Below are positions 32,461 through 62,043 of a stretch of DNA of 62,154 nt, piece after piece. The first letter of the stretch is position 1. Each line of letters starts with the position of its first letter. The position numbers and the translations under genes were made by a program. Origin of the DNA: a virus (taxonomy: Duplodnaviria; Caudoviricetes); IMG/VR virus record IMGVR_UViG_3300008110_000717, positions 1 through 62,154 of that record; one strand, written 5' to 3'. The notes under the pieces are model-generated. The model was not told the origin of the DNA, did no database searches, and saw only the letters and a program-made list of their open reading frames with translations.

Positions 32461-33375
32461 TTACGCGCCTTGTGAGCCGTACATGCCCAAAGGATCAGAC
32501 CAACCAAACGAATAACGCTCACGAGCCTTGTAACGTACGTTACCGGTATCGAAGTCGCCATCCATTGATTGCCCTAAAGGTGAACGGATAAAGTGCTTCA
32601 TGCCGTTTGGAACGTCAGTGGTCAGGAACCATGCGTTTGTGTCGGTCAAGAAGTGGTTAATCGCGTAGCCTTCTGGGATCGAGCCATTGTTCTTAATGGC
32701 GTTGATGTCATTGTCGTTAGTGCCGACACGCAGGCTGGTTTCCAACAGACGGGTTGCAACGAATTGCAGTGCTGGTGGGATAATCAGTTTACGTGGACGA
32801 GCAGCAATCAACAGACCGCGTTCATCAGTCCAAGCTGCAATTTGAATAACTGCGTTTTCCAACGAAGTTTCATTCAAGTCAGCAGGAGTTGATGGGATGT
32901 TGCTGTTGGTGCCACCAGAAACCAAAGGATGGCTAGCCGAGAACAGAGGTACACCGTCGCCGCCGTAGTATGCAGCGGAATTAGTGAAGCCGTTGTTCAG
33001 GATAGACGCACCTTTAACTTGCTTGGTGTAAGCCATCGAACGAGCCAGACCCTTGGTATAACGCTGTGACAGTGAGTCGTACAGGTTATCTTCAATCGCT
33101 TCTTCAGTGATTGAAAAGCCTTGGGCAATAGTCTCGTGGTTGTATCGTGCAGTCCAAGCTTCTTGCGCGTTGTCATAAGCAATTGCGCTACCCTCGTTTT
33201 TAACGGGAGCGGCACTAAAGCCAGACAGCTTGGTTTCTTCTTCAAACGAACGCTCGGAAGTCTCTGTTTCGTAGATTTCCTTGTGCTCTTCGCCGTAACG
33301 GGCATACTCCAGACCGAACAAGGCGTTCAGGCCGGGGAGCAGCTCTTTCAGTAGTTGTGCGCGTGAAATAGCCAT
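32461..33375 (-). CDS. Major capsid protein (Mu gpT-like family)
   Basis: MAISRAQLLKELLPGLNALFG, DGVPLFSASHP, PRKLIIPPAL, ERYSFGWSD; strong codon bias; followed by a terminator. Confidence 0.85.
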   Translation of the reverse strand: MAISRAQLLKELLPGLNALFGLEYARYGEEHKEIYETETSERSFEEETKLSGFSAAPVKNEGSAIAYDNAQEAWTARYNHETIAQGFSITEEAIEDNLYDSLSQRYTKGLARSMAYTKQVKGASILNNGFTNSAAYYGGDGVPLFSASHPLVSGGTNSNIPSTPADLNETSLENAVIQIAAWTDERGLLIAARPRKLIIPPALQFVATRLLETSLRVGTNDNDINAIKNNGSIPEGYAINHFLTDTNAWFLTTDVPNGMKHFIRSPLGQSMDGDFDTGNVRYKARERYSFGWSDPLGMYGSQGA

Positions 33376-40762: not shown

Positions 40763-40791
40763 TTGCAACCACGTTGGACGCAGTGTATATT
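40763..40791 (+). promoter_or_regulatory. Sigma70-like promoter for the sRNA
   Basis: TTGCAA-17 nt-TATATT. Confidence 0.6.
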
Positions 40792-40810
40792 TAACTTTGC
40801 AAGTGTGCAA
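40782..40810 (-). promoter_or_regulatory. Sigma70-like promoter for the late (terS) operon
   Basis: TTGCAC-17 nt-TACACT on the minus strand; -10 overlaps that of the sRNA promoter. Confidence 0.55.
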
Positions 40811-40884
40811 GCGGCAACGCTTACATTTGCTTCTCCTTCGCGTCAGCGAACTTTGTCCCTCAGTCACGGCTGGGGGATTTTTTT
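40798..40884 (+). ncRNA. Putative anti-RBS small RNA
   Basis: Promoter, GCAA-tetraloop hairpin, CATTTGCTTCTCCTT, short hairpin, then terminator stem plus T7. Confidence 0.65.
40856..40884 (+). terminator. Intrinsic terminator of the sRNA
   Basis: TCCCTCAGT-CACG-GCTGGGGGA (9 bp, 2 G:U) then TTTTTTT. Confidence 0.75.
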
Positions 40885-40893
40885 GTCTGTGTA

Positions 40894-40909: not shown

Positions 40910-41031
40910 AGGTGTTTGAGATTTTGTAGAAAATAATGTGGGGTAGGGCATATTGTATAAGTGATAACTGAAGTATTGAGCATGGTTGTGAAACAGTGTT
41001 CAGTATGGACGACCCCCCCTGTCTTCTATTT

Positions 41032-41062
41032 GGGTGGGTGGGGGTAGGGTGGGGGTCAGGGG
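41032..41062 (+). other. G-tract cluster (G-quadruplex potential) between the two arms
   Basis: GGG-T-GGG-T-GGGGG-TA-GGG-T-GGGGG-TCA-GGGG. Confidence 0.6.
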
Positions 41063-41146
41063 ATAGCCAAATCAGGTCAGAAATAGGGTCGAAATGACCC
41101 GAATATGGCTTAGATACTAGGGTTTAAGCCGATCAAAAAGGGGTAA

Positions 41147-41155: not shown

Positions 41156-41210
41156 GAAATTGTGCTGATTCGGCACATAACTAACCCAAAGGACCCAAAG
41201 GAGCTACACC

Positions 41211-41594: not shown

Positions 41595-41690
41595 TCATCG
41601 GGTCACGTTGACCCGATGGAATTTCAAGGCGGTGCAAGCGGGGAGCCGAGCCGTTGTTTCATTCCATGTCTAACCAAAGGAGATTTATCC

Positions 41691-41873
41691 ATGAATAGCC
41701 AAAAAATCATAGAGTTACTGCTAAACGGCGCGTATCACGAAGGAAACAAGTTCTTTCACCCAAGTTTTCGCAGAGGCTACCGAACAATGCGCGTCTCTGA
41801 CATTTCATTCCAAGCGGCACTAAAGAAACTCGGAGCGCAAGTAAAACTCAACAACGGCAAGTACTCAATCTAA
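41691..41873 (+). CDS. Early hypothetical protein
   Basis: TAACCAAAGGAG SD before ATG 41691 (MNSQKIIELL). Confidence 0.7.
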   Translation: MNSQKIIELLLNGAYHEGNKFFHPSFRRGYRTMRVSDISFQAALKKLGAQVKLNNGKYSI

Positions 41874-41889
41874 CCAAAGGAAAATCACC

Positions 41890-42159
41890 ATGCAAAACAC
41901 AAAATCAATCTTCTTTGTTGAAGTAACCGACACCTACGCAGGTGAAGCAAACTACTGCTGGGTGAAACGCTTCAAAGTTCATGCGTCTAGCTTCAAAGGC
42001 GCAATACGAAAAGTCAGTAGCGAAATGGGCTTATCCGCCCGCATCAACGGTGACTACGGTGACATGGCGCGTTATGACTTCAAAGGAACCGCGATCTGCG
42101 CTTTCGTTATGCCCTACGAAGATCAAGCCGAGCACTACTTAAACGTCAAATCAATCTAA
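41890..42159 (+). CDS. Early hypothetical protein
   Basis: TAACCAAAGGA SD; VTDTYAGEANYCWVKR motif. Confidence 0.75.
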   Translation: MQNTKSIFFVEVTDTYAGEANYCWVKRFKVHASSFKGAIRKVSSEMGLSARINGDYGDMARYDFKGTAICAFVMPYEDQAEHYLNVKSI

Positions 42160-42175
42160 CCAAAGGAGAATCATC

Positions 42176-43642: not shown

Positions 43643-43694
43643 AAACGGGTCAGCCTGACCCGCTAATCAGGCACAACAACCAAAGGAGAAGTAA

Positions 43695-43880
43695 ATGAAC
43701 CAAGACCAACAACACGCAGCAGCAATACACATGAAGAAAGTAGGCGGCGGGTTTGCAAGCCGTCTAGCCGAAGCGTACCTGTACGCTGACTCATGGAACC
43801 AGCGCCGTATCTATGAGGCGTTCGAGGATTTGTTTGAGAGGCACTTACCAACCAAAGGAGAAGCAAATGAAGTCATGTAG
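43695..43880 (+). CDS. Early hypothetical protein
   Basis: GGGFASRLAEAYLYADSWN; AAGGAGAAGTAAATG start. Confidence 0.7.
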   Translation: MNQDQQHAAAIHMKKVGGGFASRLAEAYLYADSWNQRRIYEAFEDLFERHLPTKGEANEVM

Positions 43881-44061
43881 AAATTGCGAACGGTCTGTGC
43901 ATGATGGGTATTTCCATGTGCGTTTGCTATGCAACGCCAAAAGCATGGTAGTCGTGCCGTTTCAATCTGGGGTAGCAGAAGAAAACAAAACGCATGACAG
44001 GCAAGCCCAGATGTATGCGGCAACGTGTGAATACTATGAACGGGTCAGCCTGACCCGATAA
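43867..44061 (+). CDS. Early Cys-containing hypothetical protein
   Basis: MKSCRNC...C...C; AAGGAGAAGCAAATG start. Confidence 0.65.
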   Translation: MKSCRNCERSVHDGYFHVRLLCNAKSMVVVPFQSGVAEENKTHDRQAQMYAATCEYYERVSLTR

Positions 44062-44077
44062 CCAAAGGAGAAAAAGA

Positions 44078-44343: not shown

Positions 44344-44739
44344 ATGAAAACCAATGAACTAACAGGCGCTGCCCTTGACTGGGCAGTCGCGCAATGCGAG
44401 GGGTTAAACCCAATACTAGGCAGTTCGTTTGAGCGTGGTCATGCAGACGGGCTTGATCGGTATCCGTTCGTGTACTTACATGAGCCAATGAAACACAACA
44501 TCGCAGCACCTGCGTTTTATACAGGGTACACGCCATCAGTAAGTTGGTGGATAGGCGGGGAGATCATCGAGCGCGAACGCATAGAGCTTGTGCCTGATGA
44601 GATATGGAACGCATACAAACAAGATCAACACATACCCAACACCGGCATGACCCCATTGATTGCAGCCATGCGCTGCTACGTGGCAAGCAAACTAGGTGAC
44701 GATGTGGAAGTACCAGAAGAAGTAGTACTTGATAAATAA
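44344..44739 (+). CDS. NinX/DUF2591-like phage protein
   Basis: LTGAALDWAVA...PLIAAMRCYVASKLG. Confidence 0.75.
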   Translation: MKTNELTGAALDWAVAQCEGLNPILGSSFERGHADGLDRYPFVYLHEPMKHNIAAPAFYTGYTPSVSWWIGGEIIERERIELVPDEIWNAYKQDQHIPNTGMTPLIAAMRCYVASKLGDDVEVPEEVVLDK

Positions 44740-44776
44740 ACGGGTCAGCCTGACCCGATAACCAAAGGAGAAGCAC

Positions 44777-47293: not shown

Positions 47294-47335
47294 ACAATAA
47301 TGGGGTCAGGTTGACCCCTTTTTAAGGAGAAGCAA

Positions 47336-50125: not shown

Positions 50126-50364
50126 AAGAGATGGATGAAGATGACCGCAATAACTTCCGCGACATCATTGAAAAACTTTCGCACTGCTATGTTAAAGATG
50201 CAGCGCAAGCTGTGATTTTGTACGCGCACATTGACGCACCCATGACAGAAGCACTGACTATTAATTGCAATGACATGGAGACGTACGACATTATTCAAGG
50301 AGCGTTAGGGTACTTTGAGTTTTTAAACATGCGCGATGCACCACCAAAGGAGAACTTTAATTGA
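50092..50364 (+). CDS. Hypothetical protein
   Basis: SD AAGGAG; acidic 90 aa. Confidence 0.6.
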   Translation: MSDPKEFAKRIEEMDEDDRNNFRDIIEKLSHCYVKDAAQAVILYAHIDAPMTEALTINCNDMETYDIIQGALGYFEFLNMRDAPPKENFN

Positions 50365-55253: not shown

Positions 55254-56802
55254 AAACAAAGCGTTGCTGTTTCGCACTCGCAACCCAGATAAGTATCGCG
55301 TAATTCCTAAACATAAGGTGGTGAACAGACATGACGATGGCTCGACAGAGATTGCTGTCTATTGGGGACTCGACGAAGCTAGGGTTCTTAAAAATCTCGG
55401 TGTTAAAAACGTTCCTTCACCTATCACGAAGAGGTACAACTGGCCGGGCAAATACAAACCGATGGCGCATCAGATTGAGACAGCGGCTTTTCTCACTCTC
55501 AATAAGAAGGCTTTCGTTTTTTCGGAGCCGGGTACTGGTAAGACCCTCTCGGCGCTTTGGGCAGCAGACTACTTGATGACACGCGGCGATGTGCGCCGCT
55601 GTTTAATTCTTTGTCCGTTGTCGATCATGCAGTCAGCATGGATGGGTGACTTGAACAGCAGCATCATTCATCGCTCTGCCGTTGTAGCGCACCACTCTCA
55701 AGCTAGTCGCCGCATCGAGATGGTTCAGCAAAGTTATGAGTTCGTCATTACCAACTACGACGGGTTGAACTTAATTGCGGACGAAGTAGTCAATGACGGT
55801 AGGTTTGATCTCATCATTGTTGACGAAGCCAATGCGTACAAAACCATCACAACGAAACGATGGAAGGCATTGAAGTCGTTAATAACACCAACGACACATC
55901 TGTGGATGATGACGGGTACGCCTGCATCACAGTCACCAGCAGACGCGTATGGCTTGGCGCGTTTAGTTAATCCTGAAGGCATACCGAAGTTCTTCACAGG
56001 CTGGCGTGACAAGGTGATGCAGAAGCTCACGCAATTTAAATGGGTTGCCAAAGCATCAGCAGCAGACGAAGTACATCGCGCCTTACAGCCAGCGATACGG
56101 TTTACTAAAGCGCAGTGCCTTGATTTACCGCCCGTGCTGACAATGACGCGTGAGGTTCCGCTAACACCACAGCAAGCCAAGTACTACAACTTGTTGAAAG
56201 AACGCATGATGGTCAAGGCCGCAGGCGAAACAATCACTGCGGTGAATGCCGCTGCTGGAGTATCTAAACTGTTGCAAATATCGTGCGGCGCAGCATACAC
56301 AGACGATAAAGAAATTGTGACGTTTGATTCAGCCCCACGACTAGCGGTGCTGGAAGAAATCCTTGAAGAAACTAGCCGCAAAGTTATTATCTTTGCTTTA
56401 TTTAGAAGCACCATTGACAGCATACACACGCACTTACTAAAGAAAAATGTGACTGCCGAATGTATCCACGGAGATGTACCGCCTAGTAAACGCGCAGATA
56501 TTATTCGTCGCTTCCAAGTAGAGAAAGACCCACGCGTATTAGTTATGCAACCACAAGCGAGTGCGCATGGAATCACACTGACGGCGGCTGATACGGTTGT
56601 CTTCTATGGTCCATTGATGTCCGTTGAGCAGTACACACAGTGCATAGCCCGTGCAGATAGGAAGGGTCAAGACTCCGACAAAGTAACGGTTGTGCACATA
56701 GAAGGCTCACCGATTGAGAAGAAAATGTTTAAAGCTTTGCAACTAAAAGTGACCGACCACGCATTGCTTACGCAATTATTCAACACTGAAATAAATTCTT
56801 GA
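55240..56802 (+). CDS. SNF2-like superfamily 2 helicase
   Basis: PGTGKT, VDEA, MTGTP, GITLTAA, QCIARADRKGQ. Confidence 0.9.
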   Translation: MQIIENKALLFRTRNPDKYRVIPKHKVVNRHDDGSTEIAVYWGLDEARVLKNLGVKNVPSPITKRYNWPGKYKPMAHQIETAAFLTLNKKAFVFSEPGTGKTLSALWAADYLMTRGDVRRCLILCPLSIMQSAWMGDLNSSIIHRSAVVAHHSQASRRIEMVQQSYEFVITNYDGLNLIADEVVNDGRFDLIIVDEANAYKTITTKRWKALKSLITPTTHLWMMTGTPASQSPADAYGLARLVNPEGIPKFFTGWRDKVMQKLTQFKWVAKASAADEVHRALQPAIRFTKAQCLDLPPVLTMTREVPLTPQQAKYYNLLKERMMVKAAGETITAVNAAAGVSKLLQISCGAAYTDDKEIVTFDSAPRLAVLEEILEETSRKVIIFALFRSTIDSIHTHLLKKNVTAECIHGDVPPSKRADIIRRFQVEKDPRVLVMQPQASAHGITLTAADTVVFYGPLMSVEQYTQCIARADRKGQDSDKVTVVHIEGSPIEKKMFKALQLKVTDHALLTQLFNTEINS

Positions 56803-56809
56803 AAGGGGG

Positions 56810-56853
56810 TTGCATTCAAATCCAAACCGCAGTAATCTGTCAAACGCTAGACA
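56810..56853 (+). promoter_or_regulatory. Promoter TTGCAT-17-TAATCT with operator TGTCAA-ACGC-TAGACA over the start site
   Basis: Intergenic; same palindrome family as 40894 and 48418. Confidence 0.6.
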
Positions 56854-56873
56854 AACAATAATAGGAGAAGCAG

Positions 56874-57287
56874 ATGTCCGATACAGTCACAGAGCTTATT
56901 CCAATGGATAAGCTCGCAAAGATTTATCGCAAGATCAAGGAAGAAATTGATGTGCTGACAAAGGAGTACGACACCAAAGTCGAACTGCTCAAAGCACAGC
57001 AAGACGAACTTCGTTTTGCAATGAAAGACCAGATGAAAGCCCTCGGGGTCAAGTCTGTTAACACCACCTTCGGCACCGTGTCTATGATTAACAAGACGCG
57101 TTACAGCACAGATGATTGGGACTCGTTCAAGAAGTTTGTTGTTATGAACGACGTTGTTGATCTTCTGGAAAAGCGTATTGCTCAAACCAATATGGCTCGG
57201 TTCCTCGAAGAAAATCCCGGCAGTGTACCGCCCGGATTAAATGCCTTTTCTGATTTTGAAATCAGAGTTACTAAACCCTCTAAGTGA
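56874..57287 (+). CDS. Conserved replication-module protein
   Basis: Coiled coil followed by SVNTTFGTV..DWDSF..LLEKRI..PPGLN. Confidence 0.7.
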   Translation: MSDTVTELIPMDKLAKIYRKIKEEIDVLTKEYDTKVELLKAQQDELRFAMKDQMKALGVKSVNTTFGTVSMINKTRYSTDDWDSFKKFVVMNDVVDLLEKRIAQTNMARFLEENPGSVPPGLNAFSDFEIRVTKPSK

Positions 57288-57296
57288 GATTACGAT

Positions 57297-58241
57297 ATGT
57301 CAAATATAACGCTTTTTTCTTCCTCAAACGCTCCCGCATTTGCCCGCAATAACGCACTGTCTGAAACCGCTTTAGCTTTAACTGGCGGTGGTACTGGCAC
57401 CAGCACCAAGCGCATCTCCATTAAAGGCGGTGTGTTTCGTTTAGTAGCTGGCGGTAAAGAAGTTGCTGCGATTGATGATCGCCATCTGGACGTCATCATT
57501 GTTAAAGCTGCTCCCAAGGTCAGCCGTATTTTCTACGCTAAAGCGTACGACTCCGAGAACATCACAGGACCAGACTGCTGGTCTAACGATGGCGAGAAGC
57601 CTGATGCTACAGCACAGAACAAACAGTCGCAGACGTGCATTTCATGCCCACAGAATCAAGCAGGTTCGGGTCAGGGTAATAGCCGTGCATGTCGTTATCA
57701 GCAGCGTTTGGCAGTCGTGTTGGAGAGTAATCCTAATGGGGATGTATTGCAGTTGACGCTGCCAGCAACATCGGTGTTCGGTAAAGAAGACGGTGACAAG
57801 CGTCCTCTGCAAGCCTATGCACGTCATCTGGCACTTTCAAACCCGCCTGTTAATCCTGAACAGATCGTAACCCGTATGCGCTTTGATACGAAGGCCGAGT
57901 CGCCTAAGTTATTTTTCCAACCCCTGCGTTGGTTGACTGAAGACGAGTACGCCGTTGTGCAAGAGCAAGCTACCTCAACTGATGCGAGTCGTGCAGTGGT
58001 CATGACGGTTGCACAAACGGATGGCGTTAAGCAGTCTGCGCCTCTGTCGCTGCCCGGCAAGGCTCCTGTTGTTGAGGAAGAAGAGGAAGCACCGAAACCT
58101 AAAGCTGCGAAGAAGCCGAAGGTTGAAGTAGCCGACGCGGATGACGAGCCTGAAGTTCGCAAGGATTCAGCCAAGCCCACAGCCGTGCCAGAGAAGAAGT
58201 CGAAGCTGGCAGACATCGTGTCTGATTGGGACGACGAGTAA
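57297..58241 (+). CDS. Putative single-stranded DNA-binding/annealing protein
   Basis: RISIKGGVF, Cys cluster, flexible tail ending acidic-aromatic SDWDDE. Confidence 0.65.
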   Translation: MSNITLFSSSNAPAFARNNALSETALALTGGGTGTSTKRISIKGGVFRLVAGGKEVAAIDDRHLDVIIVKAAPKVSRIFYAKAYDSENITGPDCWSNDGEKPDATAQNKQSQTCISCPQNQAGSGQGNSRACRYQQRLAVVLESNPNGDVLQLTLPATSVFGKEDGDKRPLQAYARHLALSNPPVNPEQIVTRMRFDTKAESPKLFFQPLRWLTEDEYAVVQEQATSTDASRAVVMTVAQTDGVKQSAPLSLPGKAPVVEEEEEAPKPKAAKKPKVEVADADDEPEVRKDSAKPTAVPEKKSKLADIVSDWDDE

Positions 58242-58247
58242 AGCTAC

Positions 58248-58408
58248 GGGGGAAAGCGGATGCTGACCAGTTAGCTGAAATGCAAAGGCAGTGCAGCGAG
58301 TACCCCACCAAACAGCCCAGCCGGAGGTGGCGCATATAACACCGGCAGCGGGGGCTAGAGTTTCCTTTGGTTGTAGCTACACCTACTTTAGTGACCCCGC
58401 ACCTTTTT
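58248..58408 (+). ncRNA. Putative multi-domain structured RNA in the ssb 3' intergenic region
   Basis: Three consecutive stems; the first ends CCCC-ACCA, the third displays TTCCTTTGGTTG and is followed by a T-run. Confidence 0.55.
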
Positions 58409-58421
58409 ATAGGAGAAGCAA

Positions 58422-58682
58422 ATGTTTGATGGAAAAACATACAACGCAGAACGCGACAAAGATCGCTTAAAGACACAACTGTTTAATGTCTGGCGGCTAA
58501 TGAAAGACAGCCGTTGGAGAACGTTGGAGCAGATTTCAGAGAAGGTTGGTTGTCCTGAAGCAAGTGTAAGTGCAAGGCTTCGGGATTTCCGTAAACGCCA
58601 GTTCGGTAGCCATACAGTTGAACGCGAGTATGTGCGCCGAGGTTTATTCAAGTATCGACTTATACCCAATGAAGAACACTAA
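58422..58682 (+). CDS. Winged-HTH protein
   Basis: WRTLEQI...EASVSARLRDFRK..G. Confidence 0.7.
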   Translation: MFDGKTYNAERDKDRLKTQLFNVWRLMKDSRWRTLEQISEKVGCPEASVSARLRDFRKRQFGSHTVEREYVRRGLFKYRLIPNEEH

Positions 58683-58963
58683 TGGCCTATTCACAAAAAA
58701 TAATTGATTCAATTGCCGCCGCGCCTAAATCGTTGGGAAACCAGCTTGGGCGATGGGCAGTGCATTTAGATTTCCCAGTGACGAAGATTGCTTACGCACT
58801 TGGGGTCACAAGGCAGACAGTTTACAACTGGTTCATAGGCAAGACCGATGTGTTTATTGCTTACGAAGAGCGTGTGGACTTTCTATTAAAAATAATGAAG
58901 GCATCTAAAAGTGCCGATGAAGCATGGAGAAAAATATGTCAAGCGTACGGCCTGAAACCCTAA
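58682..58963 (+). CDS. Cro/XRE-type HTH regulator
   Basis: IAYALGVTRQTVYNWF. Confidence 0.8.
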   Translation: MAYSQKIIDSIAAAPKSLGNQLGRWAVHLDFPVTKIAYALGVTRQTVYNWFIGKTDVFIAYEERVDFLLKIMKASKSADEAWRKICQAYGLKP

Positions 58964-59136
58964 CCGATAAAGAACTATTAAAAGCAGGCTACATACTGTG
59001 GAGTGATGAAGCAGGGATGCCCGTTTTGTTTCAGAAAGAATTGTTAAAACGTTGCGCGGGGCTGCTGGATAAACTTGAGTTTAGTGGACTTAACAAGCAA
59101 CAAGAAGACCCCAAACAACTCCGCCTGTTCGATTAA
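58936..59136 (+). CDS. Hypothetical protein
   Basis: MSSVRPETLTDKELL...DPKQLRLFD; the QLxLF end resembles a sliding-clamp-binding motif. Confidence 0.6.
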   Translation: MSSVRPETLTDKELLKAGYILWSDEAGMPVLFQKELLKRCAGLLDKLEFSGLNKQQEDPKQLRLFD

Positions 59137-59151
59137 ATCCAAAGGAAGTAT

Positions 59152-62043
59152 ATGACTCCGCTTGAATTTCTAGCGGTTGTCTTGCCGTCTCCAGAGCACG
59201 GGTTGTATTGCGCTTGCGAATTGACGGACAAGAAAGAGCATATCTTTGTTGAAGACACCGCTGAGTTTTATCCCAAGGTTAATGCGTGGGTGGAGAATAA
59301 ATGCAATGTGTACTTTGCATTGGCTACGTTTGACGAAAAAGTTGCGCAGATTAAAGGCAATAAGGACAGACGCACGATTCCTAACTCGCGCTTTATCAAG
59401 GCATTGTTTCTTGATCTGGATGGGTATGAGTCAAAGAAAGCTGCGGCACAAGCGTTAAATCAATTCATGGCAAAGACGGGGCTTGACTTGCTCGGTACGC
59501 CTTGGATCGTTGCGTCTGGTGGCGGCTTGCATTGCTATTGGCCTTTGGAAGAAACCATCGAGGTCGCGGTGTGGAAGCCTGTTGCTGAAAACTTTAAGCG
59601 CCTGTGTGCGCAAGAAGAACTGCGCATTGATAATACCGTTACCGCAGACTCTGCAAGGGTGCTTCGTCTTCCTGAAACGTTTAACTTTAAAGAAAAGTAT
59701 GGTGCGCCGCGTGAGGTGCGCATACTAACCGAAGGAGACATATTTGATTTTGAAACGCTGGCCGAACACATCCGCAGTCAGTTAACAACACTACCACCAG
59801 TAACAACGAGCAACGTCATTGAGCTACCCGGAACGCGACCCGCTGCACCGTCGGCTACTAGCGTCAAACTGTTTGAGAATTCAGTGACGAAGTTTCGCAC
59901 CATCGTCGAAAAGACCAAGGCAGGTACAGGCTGCGGTCAACTTGCATACTACATAGAGAATGCACAAGAAGATGGTATGGAGCCGCTCTGGCGGGGGATG
60001 CTGTCGATTGCACAGAAGTGTGAAGAATCAGAGAAGGCGGTTGTGTGGCTGTCTCAGATGCACCCATACGATGAAGAGCGTATGCACACTAAGCTGCGGG
60101 AAATTAGAGGCCCTTACCCTTGCACTAAGTTCGACAGTGAGAATCCCGGCGTATGTACTAGCTGTCCTCACTGGGGCAAGATAACAAATCCGTTAGCGTT
60201 GGGCAGAGAGTACGCAGTCGAGACGCAAGAGAAGCACGTCGAGGTGCAGCTTGATAAGGAAATTAAAAAGATTCTGCGCCCTGAACCGCCACGGGGCTAT
60301 GCCTATGGTCAGAACGGTGGAGTGTTTATTGAGCGTGATGATGAGGATGCAGACGGCAATAAGATTAAGCGCCAGATAATGCTCTTGCCTTACGACTTGT
60401 TTCCTGTGGACATCTTAAATCAGAACGGCGAACACACTGTACACATGTTAGCTACTAGGAGAGAGGGTGCTCAGACCATAACGTTTCCACAGAAATGTGC
60501 AGTCAGTAAAGAAGAAACGTTGAAGCACTTAGCTACGCAGAACGTCATTGCATCTTTTGGGTCAGGCAACGATAAGAACTTGTTTGATTTTATTCGCGCT
60601 TGTGTAGAGAAGTTGTCGATGGATAAGGCCCCGATCAAAGTGCCGTCTAACTATGGTTGGCAGACTGATGATACGTATGTGTTTGCAGGCAAGATATTTT
60701 TCAAAGGCGGCAGCGTTGAAGTGCCTATGCCGGGGCTTGAGAATATTGTTATGCACACGAAGCCTACAGGTTCGTTGGATATATGGCGGCAGTTCGTCAA
60801 CATGATGATCCGAAAGAAAATGTGGGATCACTTAACCGTCACGATGATGAGTATGGCTTCACCTTTGATGCGCTTTACAGGCATCTATGGCTTAACGGTG
60901 CACTTGGGTTCTACTGAGTCAGGCACAGGTAAGACACTGGCGTTAGAAGCTGCGGCTTCTGTATGGGGGCATCCTGTTCACTACCGCACAGGTAAGGGCA
61001 CATCGCCTGTAGCTATGCAGCAGCGCATGGGTTTGTTAAACAGTCATCCGTTGGTAACAGACGAGATCACTGCTAAGAACCGTAAAGACTTTGAATGGTT
61101 CCCTGAGTTCTTGTTGGATAACACAGAGGGTCGTGGCAAGGAACGTATGGAGTCTGGGTCAAACAAAGAACGTTTGAACTTATCCACGTGGGCGTCCATG
61201 ACGTTCATGTCATCCAACACCCATGCCGTAGACTACCTGACAGGGGGACGTAAGCACTCCTCTGAGGGCGAACTTAGACGTTTGCTTGAGTTCATCATGG
61301 ATCAAGAACTTTCTTGGGAGCCACATGAGATTGAAATCATTAAGTCGTTGGCGAATAATTACGCGGTGGCAGGAGAAGCGTTCGTCAAGTTTATGGTTGA
61401 GAATGTCGAACTTCTGTCGCGTCTTGTCCCAGAAGTGGTAGCTGAGATGTACAAGGAGTTCAACGCTACCAATGACGAACGTTTCTGGATGGCAGGTATT
61501 GGATGCACAGCAGCCGCGTGTGTTCTAACTTCGGATAAGCATGCAGGTATTGTGAATGTACCGATTGACCCTATCCTCAAGTCACTAAAGAAAGTCGTTG
61601 CATTCATGCGCTCTAGTATAAAAGCCGGAAGCCGCACAGCTGAGGATGTACTAAACAGCTTTACACGTGAGTACTACGGTAGTTTGATCGTGGTGAAGTT
61701 CAATGCTGCTGATGGCGTTTTAGCTGAGTTAGGTAATGGCGGTGCGATTGATGCGTCAACTACTCGGTCACACGTTATGGGGCGCATCGAGCACGGCATA
61801 ACTCCGGGGTTCACTGATTACTTTATTGAGGAGCGTTTGCTAAAAGCATTCTGTTCTTCCATGAGTTTTGGTTACTCCGACTTTAAACGCCAGCTTGAGC
61901 TTATGTGTGCAGTTACGCATATGCCCAAGAAAGACATGATGGCAAAAACCAAAGGCCCGCAGATGCGTGTTCCCGTGCTGAAAATAACCCGCCGTATAGA
62001 TGAAGACGATCCTGAAAATCCGCTATCCTTGGTCGCAGCTTGA
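59152..62043 (+). CDS. Primase-helicase (AEP/RepB'-like primase, Cys cluster, DUF927-type helicase)
   Basis: LDLD, SGGGLHCYW, DSARVLRLP, C..CPH, Walker A ESGTGKT, Walker B VTDE. Confidence 0.85.
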   Translation: MTPLEFLAVVLPSPEHGLYCACELTDKKEHIFVEDTAEFYPKVNAWVENKCNVYFALATFDEKVAQIKGNKDRRTIPNSRFIKALFLDLDGYESKKAAAQALNQFMAKTGLDLLGTPWIVASGGGLHCYWPLEETIEVAVWKPVAENFKRLCAQEELRIDNTVTADSARVLRLPETFNFKEKYGAPREVRILTEGDIFDFETLAEHIRSQLTTLPPVTTSNVIELPGTRPAAPSATSVKLFENSVTKFRTIVEKTKAGTGCGQLAYYIENAQEDGMEPLWRGMLSIAQKCEESEKAVVWLSQMHPYDEERMHTKLREIRGPYPCTKFDSENPGVCTSCPHWGKITNPLALGREYAVETQEKHVEVQLDKEIKKILRPEPPRGYAYGQNGGVFIERDDEDADGNKIKRQIMLLPYDLFPVDILNQNGEHTVHMLATRREGAQTITFPQKCAVSKEETLKHLATQNVIASFGSGNDKNLFDFIRACVEKLSMDKAPIKVPSNYGWQTDDTYVFAGKIFFKGGSVEVPMPGLENIVMHTKPTGSLDIWRQFVNMMIRKKMWDHLTVTMMSMASPLMRFTGIYGLTVHLGSTESGTGKTLALEAAASVWGHPVHYRTGKGTSPVAMQQRMGLLNSHPLVTDEITAKNRKDFEWFPEFLLDNTEGRGKERMESGSNKERLNLSTWASMTFMSSNTHAVDYLTGGRKHSSEGELRRLLEFIMDQELSWEPHEIEIIKSLANNYAVAGEAFVKFMVENVELLSRLVPEVVAEMYKEFNATNDERFWMAGIGCTAAACVLTSDKHAGIVNVPIDPILKSLKKVVAFMRSSIKAGSRTAEDVLNSFTREYYGSLIVVKFNAADGVLAELGNGGAIDASTTRSHVMGRIEHGITPGFTDYFIEERLLKAFCSSMSFGYSDFKRQLELMCAVTHMPKKDMMAKTKGPQMRVPVLKITRRIDEDDPENPLSLVAA

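Follow-up and report, generated by a model that had tools for sequence, protein, structure and literature searches.

The hairpin at positions 58348-58400 of the window (the whole stretch of 62,154 nucleotides analysed here, IMG/VR virus record IMGVR_UViG_3300008110_000717) belongs, as its variable arm, to a conserved RNA about 95 nt long, which we name E2. Its structure and conservation, the complementarity of its loop to the ribosome sites of the first rightward genes, and the co-variation of loop and sites in related phages are documented below. With modest confidence, we lean towards reading E2 as an anti-ribosome-site RNA similar to c4, located in the 3' untranslated region (3'UTR) of a replication-block gene. 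E2 probably works as an RNA switch that turns off the synthesis of early proteins.

E2 and its genomic setting

Re-reading of the letters confirmed the hairpin described in the initial annotation (58348-58400, followed by ACC and T5). That description treated the hairpin as a free-standing element; it is instead one arm of an RNA with an invariant 5' module. The entire E2 RNA (58314-58408, + strand) consists of this module, the variable-loop hairpin and a U-run. A covariance model, R1, built from 73 distinct E2 sequences, finds a single copy in the window, scoring 101.3 bits over 58305-58409. All parts lie on the + strand. The 5' module (58314-58347) begins with AGCCCA and continues as a hairpin, GCCGG (58320-58324)/CCGGC (58342-58346), with the loop AGGUGGCGCAUAUAACA. 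The variable-loop hairpin comprises a 5' arm, GCGGGGGCTAGAGT (58348-58361; assigned from letters and fold), a loop of 23 nt (58362-58384) and a 3' arm, ACTTTAGT-GA-CCCCGC (58385-58400), in which the 2-nt GA bulge (58393-58394) is conserved and AGUGACCC is invariant across the 73 sequences. The anti-ribosome-site seed TTTCCTTTGGTTGT (= UUUCCUUUGGUUGU; 58361-58374) is the reverse complement of ACAACCAAAGGAAA. The tail, ACC (58401-58403) and TTTTT (58404-58408), is terminator-like in the window genome.

The comparative data indicate that E2 is a real RNA structure of the + strand. Over the whole structure, 98.8% of alignment cells are paired, versus 90.6% in shuffled alignments, with 0/500 shuffles reaching 98.8% and slid-alignment controls giving 28-51%. 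Helix 2 (13 pairs) is paired in 98.4% of cells across the 73 distinct sequences, and five of its pairs have changed on both sides (e.g. GC 46/AU 27; GC 40/AU 30/UG 2/CG 1). The stem contains one invariant G:U pair and many further G:U pairs; these are impossible on the opposite strand, and the fold is therefore that of the + strand. The folding energy of the hairpin is -23.1 kcal/mol (z = -2.07; 3/200 shuffles are equally good). Helix 1, in the 5' module, is paired in 99.6% of cells and, because it never varies, is unproven by covariation. Most of the 37 invariant columns fall within the module, which is more conserved than the nearby proteins (identity across the adjoining ORF is 70-100% in those relatives), and pairing by itself leaves this invariance unexplained.

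E2 is an RNA family absent from catalogues. No Rfam family reached its gathering threshold in the entire window or in the E2 loci of 12 relatives, and a search at E values up to 10 gave only sub-threshold local matches at the window's E2 locus; among 20 E2 loci scanned with Rfam, the sole hit was a tRNA. The RNA occurs in about 93 IMG/VR stretches as well as in cultured Ralstonia phages. The environmental phages of this group are abundant, at freshwater sites in particular.

The site of E2 is the 3'UTR of ORF 57297-58241 (stop codon 58239-58241), within a replication block that includes a family A polymerase, an SNF2 helicase and a primase/helicase. The initial annotation had placed the hairpin 3' of ssb in the replication transcript. 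The location holds, in that E2 lies in the 3'UTR of a replication-block gene; the ssb identity found no confirmation, the ORF having no Pfam family, no PDB sequence match and only PHROGs without an assigned function. Megablast of 57297-59200 against phage records gave no match, and tblastn with the primase recovered only relatives of about 25% identity. In 14/77 distinct loci, E2 starts 9-10 nt past the stop codon, a gap into which a promoter of its own cannot fit, so that E2 is borne by the 3'UTR. Only one sigma-70-like site ahead of E2, at 57088, was found within 56500-60000.

A second conserved structured element, E1 (58248-58309, + strand), lies between the stop codon and E2 and has a GGGGG...CCCC stem followed by ACC. 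It is found after the homologous ORF in many relatives, E2-less ones included, and its 3' end is 4-5 nt ahead of E2 in at least 33/77 distinct loci. In one relative (G007), a tRNA-Gly(UCC) gene takes its place. Neither ARAGORN nor the Rfam tRNA/tmRNA models recognised any tRNA or tmRNA within the window, and ARAGORN likewise found none in L057 and L051, whose E1 variants carry T-arm-like words. The idea, formed by eye, that E1 might be a hammerhead-like three-way junction, SRP RNA or tmRNA was unsupported and was dropped.

Public sequencing runs with matches number ten, with shares of at most 0.26; the matches are contigs only, and one run is recorded as RNA. In that run, a 152-nt contig covers 58231-58375 with 0 differences at a depth of 5.9 and is the sole contig in a 1.6-kb stretch; it is possibly DNA, and we regard it as a weak hint of E2 expression. 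Gaps in this coverage carry no meaning.

The loop and the ribosome sites of early genes

The initial annotation had recognised 58361-58374 as the reverse complement of the ribosome-site class of the earliest genes. The matches that it listed are present at their positions, together with additional ones. The box AACCAAAGGA occurs nine times in the window versus 0.14 expected, and 0/100 shuffles reach nine. Seven copies lie 7-9 nt ahead of start codons (41.67-44.77 kb), one is at 32920 and the only one on the minus strand is the E2 loop itself. The seven early boxes, all on the + strand, are at 41672-41681 (AACCAAAGGA, 10 nt; start codon 41690; predicted duplex -20.7 kcal/mol), 41872-41883 (12-nt perfect complement; start 41890; -19.3 kcal/mol), 42158-42167 (10 nt; start 42176; -19.4 kcal/mol), 43676-43689 (12 nt perfect, to 43687, or 14 nt with one G:U; start 43695; -23.5 kcal/mol), 43849-43859 (11 nt, hybrid with the AGGAGAAGCAAAUG class; start 43868; -22.0 kcal/mol), 44060-44069 (10 nt; start 44078; -19.2 kcal/mol) and 44760-44769 (10 nt; start 44777, of a 469-aa ORF; -20.4 kcal/mol). 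Further loop matches are found at 50343-50351 (9 nt) and twice at 41186-41202 (8 nt each); the first gene (41211), with its CCAAAGGA pair, gives a duplex of -15.4 kcal/mol. Seven of eight unboxed genes give -8.9 to -13.6 kcal/mol; specificity is imperfect, the unboxed gene at 44344 giving -20.9 kcal/mol. The loop-box match is also in part trivial, since AAAGGA pairs with any anti-Shine-Dalgarno-like loop.

Downstream of E2, the primase/helicase ribosome site CCAAAGGAA (59139-59147, + strand; start 59152) is a 9-nt complement of the loop (duplex -14.1 kcal/mol). This complementarity makes the site, which lies some 0.75 kb beyond E2 and probably on the same transcript, a possible further target. 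The match extends over 9-10 nt in the window and in L004-L007, the four relatives closest to it, and over 4-8 nt in other clades, with one of 10 nt.

In the accessibility check that the initial annotation had proposed, UUCCUU (58362-58367) came out as unpaired (P at least 0.92). The UGGU of the loop sits in a weak 4-bp inner helix in the same computation, and opening the 12-14-nt seed costs 4.8-5.2 kcal/mol.

The initial annotation had made its reading depend on the loop being kept as a complement of early ribosome sites. It is so kept in relatives, and it changes with them. Three loop states, UCCUUU-GGU, -CGG and -CAG, each match the commonest NNN-AAAGG box in the first rightward genes of the same genomes, and the predicted triplet ahead of AAAGG ranks 1/64 for each loop type when ribosome-site contexts are pooled: ACC at 9/24 sites for type A, CCG at 15/84 for type B (CTG 7, ACC 4) and CTG at 11/64 for type C (CCG 1, ACC 3). 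When genomes are taken singly, the predicted triplet is among the top three in eight of nine. It ranks 1/64 in the window (ACC, 11 times), G001 (CCG, 5 times), G002 (4 times), G008 (5 times) and G017 (CTG, 5 times), is tied for rank 1 in G016 (twice) and ranks second in G011, these last two based on two sites each, and ranks 3/64 in G007. In G009, a complete genome of the close clade, it occurs once (rank 14), and ACCCAAAGG boxes are found instead. The longest matches of a genome's own loop directly ahead of start codons are TACCTGAAAGGA (12 nt, G017) and ACCTGAAAGGA (11 nt, G016); in G007, TACGGAGCAAA (11 nt), directly before a start codon, pairs with the second half of the loop. The boxes lie about 0.4-4 kb downstream of a conserved element of the 40.8-kb type in 9/9 genomes, and this position assigns them to the first rightward genes. 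The pattern CC-N0-2-AAAGGR..ATG occurs at 6-10 sites in complete close-clade genomes with E2 and at 1-2 in complete relatives without it (n = 3; R1 at most 11 bits).

Several observations bound this pattern. Loop type follows phylogeny, so that the genomes amount to about three independent lineages, not nine. Other loop types (GGAA, GGGU, UAGG and CAGA) are found in L004-L006, L068 and L180. The co-variation is not exclusive: genomes of types B and C mix box types, and the window's loop also matches 1-4 ribosome-context 9-mers in other genomes. A second E2 copy as the source of the mixed boxes was rejected because each genome has a single R1 hit (10/10). Four fragments (G003, G004, G005 and G025) carry E2 and 0 predicted boxes; lacking the early region, they are uninformative. 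In 12 E2 genomes of other clades (G006, G010, G012-G015, G018-G024), no convincing complementary ribosome sites were found, the nearest being a 9-nt match preceding an ATG in G018 and, in G015, an 11-mer that no start codon follows. The Ralstonia phage DU_RP_II has an E2 homologue (51.6 bits) with the loop GCCUCCUUUCA and likewise no convincing box, its matches being limited to two 9-mers (CCGTGAAAG) close to where the leftward operon begins. As far as these genomes indicate, the loop/box co-variation is limited to one clade, and given the negative results in other clades and DU_RP_II, the ancestral role of E2 may be more general.

The second complementary RNA of the initial annotation, at 40.8 kb, is likewise present and conserved, and it co-varies with the other class of ribosome sites; the correspondence between two such classes and two complementary RNAs is for that reason a real pattern. 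Boxes combining the two classes were located as proposed, as AACCAAAGGAGAAG(C/T)A at 43678, 43850 and 44760. The two RNAs may act in the order of the suggested two-tier cascade, E2 on the first genes and the 40.8-kb RNA on early and middle genes.

Proposed function and alternatives

We propose that the transcript of gene 57297-58241 carries E2 as its untranslated 3' end, and that E2 is possibly cut out beside the tRNA-like E1. The invariant 5' module and the covarying stem would form a scaffold that keeps a loop of 20-35 nt open, with the hairpin as the arm that recognises targets. The 5' half of the loop (UUUCCUUUGGUUGU in the window) would serve as an extended anti-Shine-Dalgarno sequence. 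Its main partner would be AACCAAAGGA(G), the box private to the genes that open the rightward operon (41.2-44.8 kb), to which it would pair over 10-14 nt; pairing with the primase ribosome site would be weaker. Such pairing would cover the Shine-Dalgarno sequence and switch off translation of the early genes once RNA polymerase has reached the replication genes. We infer that E2 accumulates, pairs with these sites in the cell and represses them.

The invariance of the 5' module and the results from other clades bear on a different account, which we consider doubtful though deserving of weight: the main job of E2 may lie elsewhere, its loop, resembling the 16S 3' end, acting as a general Shine-Dalgarno sponge or anti-Shine-Dalgarno mimic and its 5' module binding a host or phage protein, with the box match a clade-specific refinement or by-product. 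Many loops do read like the 16S tail as it is usually given (CCUCC in 10/73, CACCU in 8/73, CUCC in 33/73), private targets were not found in other clades or the Ralstonia phage homologue, and the module is conserved beyond any nearby protein. Against this, the 3-4 loop letters past UCCUUU track the phage's own boxes in three lineages, and the boxes are largely missing in E2-less relatives. Pairing of the mature 16S tail would end short of those letters. It is unlikely, by our estimate, that E2 instead acts mainly in cis, tuning read-through and translation of downstream genes, chiefly the primase/helicase, as c4 does in its own operon. That would suit the 9-nt complement at 59139-59147 with its 9-10 nt in the window and four closest relatives, a letter beside GGA that tracks the loop in several others (AUCC/GGAU, GUCC/GGAC, CCCC loops/GGGGG site), a distance of 0.5-0.9 kb between E2 and the primase/helicase gene throughout (except 1.55 kb in G010), and the window's U-run, which suggests partial termination. 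The complement nevertheless shrinks to a generic 6 nt in G007, G011, G016 and G017, its duplex is weak at -14.1 kcal/mol, the matches to early boxes are longer and far more numerous, and the next gene downstream has no complementary site. Masking in cis of the Shine-Dalgarno sequence of that next gene was rejected, since several relatives lack one at that place.

In the window, the G+C-rich stem followed by ACC and U5 has the stem and U-run of an intrinsic terminator, and a given 10-mer is expected about 0.06-0.14 times genome-wide, so that a lone loop match would be only mildly surprising. We nonetheless think it very improbable that the hairpin is only the terminator of the upstream gene and the complementarity chance. 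The T-run is not a conserved feature: a T4 run follows within 9 nt of the stem in 26/73 sequences, a T3 run in 13/73 and neither in 34/73, with stem and loop motif retained. As CCUU(U) is retained in 65/73 loops against 26/73 for the T4 run, the hairpin is not kept as a terminator. Furthermore, its 23-nt loop is far above those of terminators (a simple scan did not call the full hairpin because this loop exceeds the scan's 3-8 nt limit), an invariant module of 34 nt is attached and the loop co-varies with the box. Least credible is that the conserved sequence is protein-coding or a minus-strand ribosome site. A 59-codon frame (58291-58470) does span E2, and in DU_RP_II the homologous stretch lies inside an annotated hypothetical CDS of 170 codons, with the peptide QPEVAH shared. 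The module, however, shows no synonymous variation in 73 sequences, the loops vary in length by numbers of nucleotides not divisible by three, one clade has a 2-nt deletion that shifts the frame, and covariation with G:U pairs indicates RNA. As for a minus-strand ribosome site, which the initial annotation had named as the competing reading, no start codon is in reach: no ATG, GTG or TTG lies 4-13 nt past the box on that strand.

Comparison with known regulatory systems

Shut-off of early phage genes as a class is known from proteins (T4 RegA and RegB), and examples of ribosome sites repressed by RNA (c4 and sar) come from single operons of temperate phages. For E2, comparative data alone point to an RNA that would read a private ribosome-site tag common to a block of early genes and co-evolve with that tag. 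E2 suggests a naturally occurring scaffold that could be re-targeted to control translation.

The c4 RNA is cut out of its target's own transcript by RNase P, and such a release would fit the tRNA or tRNA-like element (E1 or tRNA-Gly) located 4-5 nt upstream of E2. In phages P1 and P7, according to an excerpt of a review, c4, a structured RNA, has exposed loops that complement the ribosome-binding region of a phage mRNA and block its translation, and the c4 loop and its target differ together between these heteroimmune relatives (PMC12197685). E2 is similar in offering 10-14-nt complements to seven early boxes and in having three loop states that track three box states. The two differ in setting, since c4 acts from upstream on one operon (icd-ant) of a temperate phage and E2 is separated by 14-17 kb from the early genes upstream of it, at least seven in number, and in the invariant 5' module, which c4 lacks. 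The C4 family of Rfam, a comparison proposed in the initial annotation, did not match at the gathering threshold in the entire window or at E values up to 10 within 58150-58500.

Base-pairing small RNAs derived from bacterial 3'UTRs include CpxQ and SroC. CisR is another, as reported in an excerpt of its source (PMC13250501). Like these RNAs, E2 follows a stop codon without a promoter of its own, ends at a terminator-like hairpin and is predicted to pair with ribosome sites; unlike them, it carries the seed within the loop of the terminal hairpin rather than upstream of it, and its candidate targets are early genes of its own phage. RsaE/RoxS and the ‘cuckoo’ RNAs are anti-Shine-Dalgarno small RNAs with C/U-rich loops. 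E2 resembles these RNAs in that an unpaired, pyrimidine-rich loop would pair with the purine-rich ribosome sites of several mRNAs. Their loops are, however, constant and read a generic Shine-Dalgarno sequence, whereas that of E2 reaches 3-6 nt further and drifts with the private box.

Two catalogued motifs show partial likeness. The stretch AGCCGG...AACACCGGCAGC of the E2 5' module aligns with the 3' end of Proteo-phage-1 (RF03044), at 14.3 bits (E = 4.6) against a threshold of 42, and the E2 hairpin GCCGG-AGGUGGCGCAUAUAACA-CCGGC aligns with the last hairpin of IMES-2 (RF02035; model positions 111-137 of 141), at 12 bits against a threshold of 54.7; E2 is a member of neither. The variable-loop hairpin is in neither model, neither motif scored at E values up to 1 in 20 further E2 loci, and no relevant paper on Proteo-phage-1 or IMES-2 was found.

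In T4, RegA is a translational repressor and RegB a nuclease that cuts GGAG in early mRNAs. The logic proposed for E2 is alike, in that a product made after the first genes reads a feature shared by early ribosome sites and shuts off the whole class; the T4 products are proteins, whereas E2 is an RNA that would read a private 10-14-nt box by base pairing. We tentatively raise the possibility, bolder than our preferred reading and less likely to prove correct, that this clade of uncultured phages of approximately 60-67 kb runs its early-to-middle switch by RNA alone, through two scaffolded small RNAs, each mirroring one private ribosome-site class and each with a seed that drifts with its regulon. 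The 40.8-kb RNA would mirror AGGAGAAGCAA and the 3'UTR-borne E2, released by the tRNA-like element, would mirror AACCAAAGGA, with the timing of E2 set by the 14-17 kb that RNA polymerase travels from the early genes. Such a switch, if true, would be the RNA equivalent of RegA/RegB in T4, its loop being programmable.

The hairpin and the early ribosome sites of the window

The window, 62,154 bp long, is a complete phage genome from IMG/VR that carries direct terminal repeats. The hairpin sits in a 180-nt gap between an upstream ORF (57297-58241) and an 86-codon ORF starting at 58422. It has the form described in the initial annotation: arms at 58348-58361 and 58385-58400, a GA bulge, a 23-nt loop, ACC, and T5 (folding energy -23.1 kcal/mol, z = -2.07). 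Its neighbours are replication genes, encoding a family A polymerase (51668), an SNF2 helicase (55240), and a DUF927 primase/helicase (59152). The upstream ORF is ‘ssb’ by the label of that annotation only; it matches no Pfam family and no PDB sequence, and the PHROGs that it matches are of unknown function only.

Two ribosome-site classes are in use among the rightward genes. The class AACCAAAGGA(G) precedes the first genes (starts 41690, 41890, 42176, 43695, 43868, 44078, and 44777), and the CCAAAGGA pair before start 41211 is grouped with it; the class AGGAGAAGCA serves many later rightward genes (44344 through 58422). The box AACCAAAGGA occurs nine times in the window versus 0.14 expected, with seven copies standing 7-9 nt before small-ORF start codons (41.67-44.77 kb), and the hairpin loop is its sole minus-strand copy. 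Since the minus strand has no start codon after the box, the loop is not the ribosome site of a leftward gene. The claimed complementarity was confirmed, with perfect complements of 10-12 nt and one of 14 nt with a single G:U (43676-43689). Predicted loop duplexes reach -19.2 to -23.5 kcal/mol with the seven AACCAAAGGA boxes, -15.4 kcal/mol with the CCAAAGGA pair of gene 41211, and -8.9 to -13.6 kcal/mol with seven of the eight unboxed genes, the exception being gene 44344 (-20.9 kcal/mol). In the proposed calculation of loop accessibility, the loop seed (58361-58374) costs ~5 kcal/mol to open. The ribosome site of the primase gene, 0.5-0.9 kb downstream of the hairpin-bearing element, is also complementary to the loop: the match spans 9-10 nt in the window and in the four relatives closest to it, and 4-8 nt (once 10 nt) in other clades, where it follows the loop only partly.

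Two further features of the early region were observed. Short perfect hairpins of the form (C)GGGTCA-NNN(N)-TGACCC(G) lie at 41598-41613, 44041-44057, 44741-44757, and 47302-47318 (+) and directly precede several boxed ribosome sites (e.g. acGGGTCAGCCTGACCCgatAACCAAAGGAG at 44040 and 44740); such hairpins could serve for processing or as weak terminators separating early genes. Additionally, a G-run-rich tract (ccccccc...gggtgggtgggggtagggtgggggtcagggg) occupies 41000-41070 (+) in the divergent leftward/rightward region.

Of the 40.8 kb sRNA that the initial annotation proposed, the element itself was found at 40763-40885 (+), comprising a promoter-like site (40763-40791), the tract CATTTGCTTCTCCTT, complement of AAGGAGAAGCAAATG (40823-40837), and a terminator (40855-40885), all on the plus strand. 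In 12 of the 14 genomes checked, a homologue lies at the start of the rightward operon, and the seed of these homologues tracks whichever ribosome-site class dominates (GCUUUCUCCUUGG with class CCAAGGAGAAAGC in G027; GCUUUCUCCUUGA with class UCAAGGAGAAAGC in G028). On the minus strand after the tract, an ATG is present only in the window (ATG-TAA).

Conservation and origin of the RNA element

Hundreds of IMG/VR sequences are related to the upstream ORF, and 80 loci were retained for comparison. Two structured elements recur downstream of this ORF, E1 (58248-58309) and E2 (58314-58408); in E2, a nearly invariant module, AGCCCAGCCGGAGGUGGCGCAUAUAACACCGGCA, precedes the hairpin. A scan with the E2 core returned 99 stretches, including six chance matches lacking the 3' arm. 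In an alignment of 73 distinct E2 sequences, 37 columns are invariant, and the structure is paired in 98.8% of cells versus 90.6% in shuffles (0 of 500 reach 98.8%) and 28-51% in slid controls. The hairpin stem is strongly supported by five pairs with changes on both sides; it also has one invariant G:U and frequent other G:U pairs, which assign the fold to the plus strand as RNA. Because the small 5' hairpin is constant across the 73 sequences, covariation has no bearing on it. The U-run is not the conserved feature, as T4 follows the stem in 26, T3 in 13, and no run in 34 of the 73; the loop keeps CCUU(U) in 65 and also CUCC in 33. When the alignment was turned into a covariance model, the model recognised a single E2 in the window (101 bits) and a single one in each of ten related genomes.

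The suggested comparison with Rfam yielded no matching family for E2. Its 5' module has local likeness only to Proteo-phage-1 (14.3 bits, threshold 42) and IMES-2 (12 bits, threshold 54.7), on neither of which our literature search found a publication. The invariant hairpin loop AGGUGGCGCAUAUAACA (58320-58346, +) is very similar both to the terminal hairpin of the marine IMES-2 motif (consensus GGUAGCGCaUAcAAC) and to the 3' end of Proteo-phage-1; it may be a protein-binding or tertiary module shared by environmental phage RNAs.

In 14 of 77 distinct loci, the start of E2 is 9-10 nt past a stop codon, and in at least 33 it is 4-5 nt past E1; G007 has a tRNA-Gly(UCC) gene with encoded CCA in place of E1. 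With a stop codon, E1, or a tRNA gene so close before it, E2 has no promoter of its own, and it may be released by tRNA-type processing. RNA data on E2 are thin: the sole run recorded as RNA gave one 152-nt contig identical to 58231-58375 (depth 5.9). E1 (+) forms a GGGGG-AAAGC...GCGAGUA-CCCC stem followed by ACC, also after the homologous ORF in L002-L081; its insert (20-70 nt) and basal stem (CCCC, GGCUC, AGAUC, AGGCC) vary, and ACC always follows. It is found even where E2 is absent, matches no Rfam family, carries T-arm-like words in variants L051, L056, and L057, and may be a tRNA-like element for processing or stabilisation.

Loop and box across related genomes

Twenty-five E2-bearing contigs were fetched by length and room upstream of E2, not by outcome. 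For each, the loop 9-mer NCCUUUNNN was read, and the predicted NNNAAAGGN was counted on the E2 strand and ranked among the 64 NNN. The predicted triplet ranks first in the window (ACC, count 11), in G001, G002, and G008 (CCG; 5, 4, and 5), and in G017 (CTG, 5); CTG ties for first in G016 (2) and ranks second in G011 (2) and third in G007 (3). G009 is a miss (CCG, count 1, rank 14), and its boxes are of the form ACCCAAAGG. When only sites with an ATG 3-11 nt after them are pooled, each of the three loop types has its predicted triplet as the most frequent: ACC in 9 of 24 sites in type A, the window (CCG 0, CTG 0); CCG in 15 of 84 in the four type B genomes (CTG 7, ACC 4); and CTG in 11 of 64 in the four type C genomes (CCG 1, ACC 3). 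The variable part is the spacer of CC-(none/G/UG)-AAAGGA, mirrored in the loop as UCCUUU-(none/C/CA)-GG. Own loop-box matches extend to 11-12 nt directly before start codons (e.g. TACCTGAAAGGA in G017 and ACCTGAAAGGA in G016; TACGGAGCAAA in G007 pairs with the second half of the loop), and the boxes lie within the first 0.4-4 kb of the rightward operon in nine of nine genomes. Loop and box do not correspond exclusively: box types are mixed in type B and C genomes, and the cross-matrix has off-diagonal matches. Because loop type follows phylogeny, we count about three independent lineages rather than nine.

As an absence control, three complete relatives were used in which the upstream ORF is present and E2 is lacking (G026-G028; best E2-model match 11 bits or less). 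They have one or two CC-N0-2-AAAGGR..ATG sites versus 6-10 in complete close-clade E2 genomes, and only words of the other class are enriched among their ribosome sites. Four fragments without the early region (G003, G004, G005, and G025) are uninformative for the box test. Twelve E2 genomes of other clades (G006, G012, and G018, with CCCCUUUC loops; the 36-kb phages G014, G015, and G019-G024; G010 and G013) yielded no convincing private targets, and their loops resemble generic anti-Shine-Dalgarno or 16S-tail-like sequences. E2 is also present in cultured Ralstonia phages. The DU_RP_II homologue (MF150911.1, 34375-34461, minus strand; 51.6 bits; L259/L260) has the same GA-bulged architecture with loop GCCUCCUUUCA and falls within R2B_p031, annotated as a hypothetical CDS, downstream of the helicase gene; this CDS is either miscalled or has the RNA embedded in its coding sequence. 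Similar matches occur in phages C22 and RpY1. A search of DU_RP_II for loop targets gave no clear ones. The anticipated co-variation holds in the window's clade across its three loop types, except in G009, and no convincing counterpart appeared in the other E2 clades; the early-box reading is therefore supported for that clade rather than the whole family.

Proposed role and comparison with known systems

E2 is most likely a 3'UTR-borne riboregulator of early ribosome sites. The comparative data show its structure, conservation, complementarity, and co-variation, whereas its accumulation, its pairing in the cell, and the direction and timing of its effect are inferred: the scaffold would present an extended anti-Shine-Dalgarno loop, which would pair with the box private to the earliest genes and block 30S binding once the replication block is transcribed, with the primase site as a weaker second target. 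The main competing explanation gives E2 a more general role, in which a protein-binding module holds a 16S-tail-like loop. Such a role accounts better for the other clades and for the invariant module, but leaves unexplained both the lock-and-key drift of the extra letters and the absence control.

No equivalent of E2 appeared among the titles listed for phage-encoded sRNAs in connection with early genes and ribosome sites. The c4 RNA of P1 and P7 has loops complementary to the ribosome site of its target and underlies the heteroimmunity of these phages, according to a review (PMC12197685). In function, c4 RNA is the closest case; by sequence, E2 is not a c4 member. E2 also resembles 3'UTR-derived sRNAs. 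In its logic, E2 can be likened to RegA and RegB of T4.
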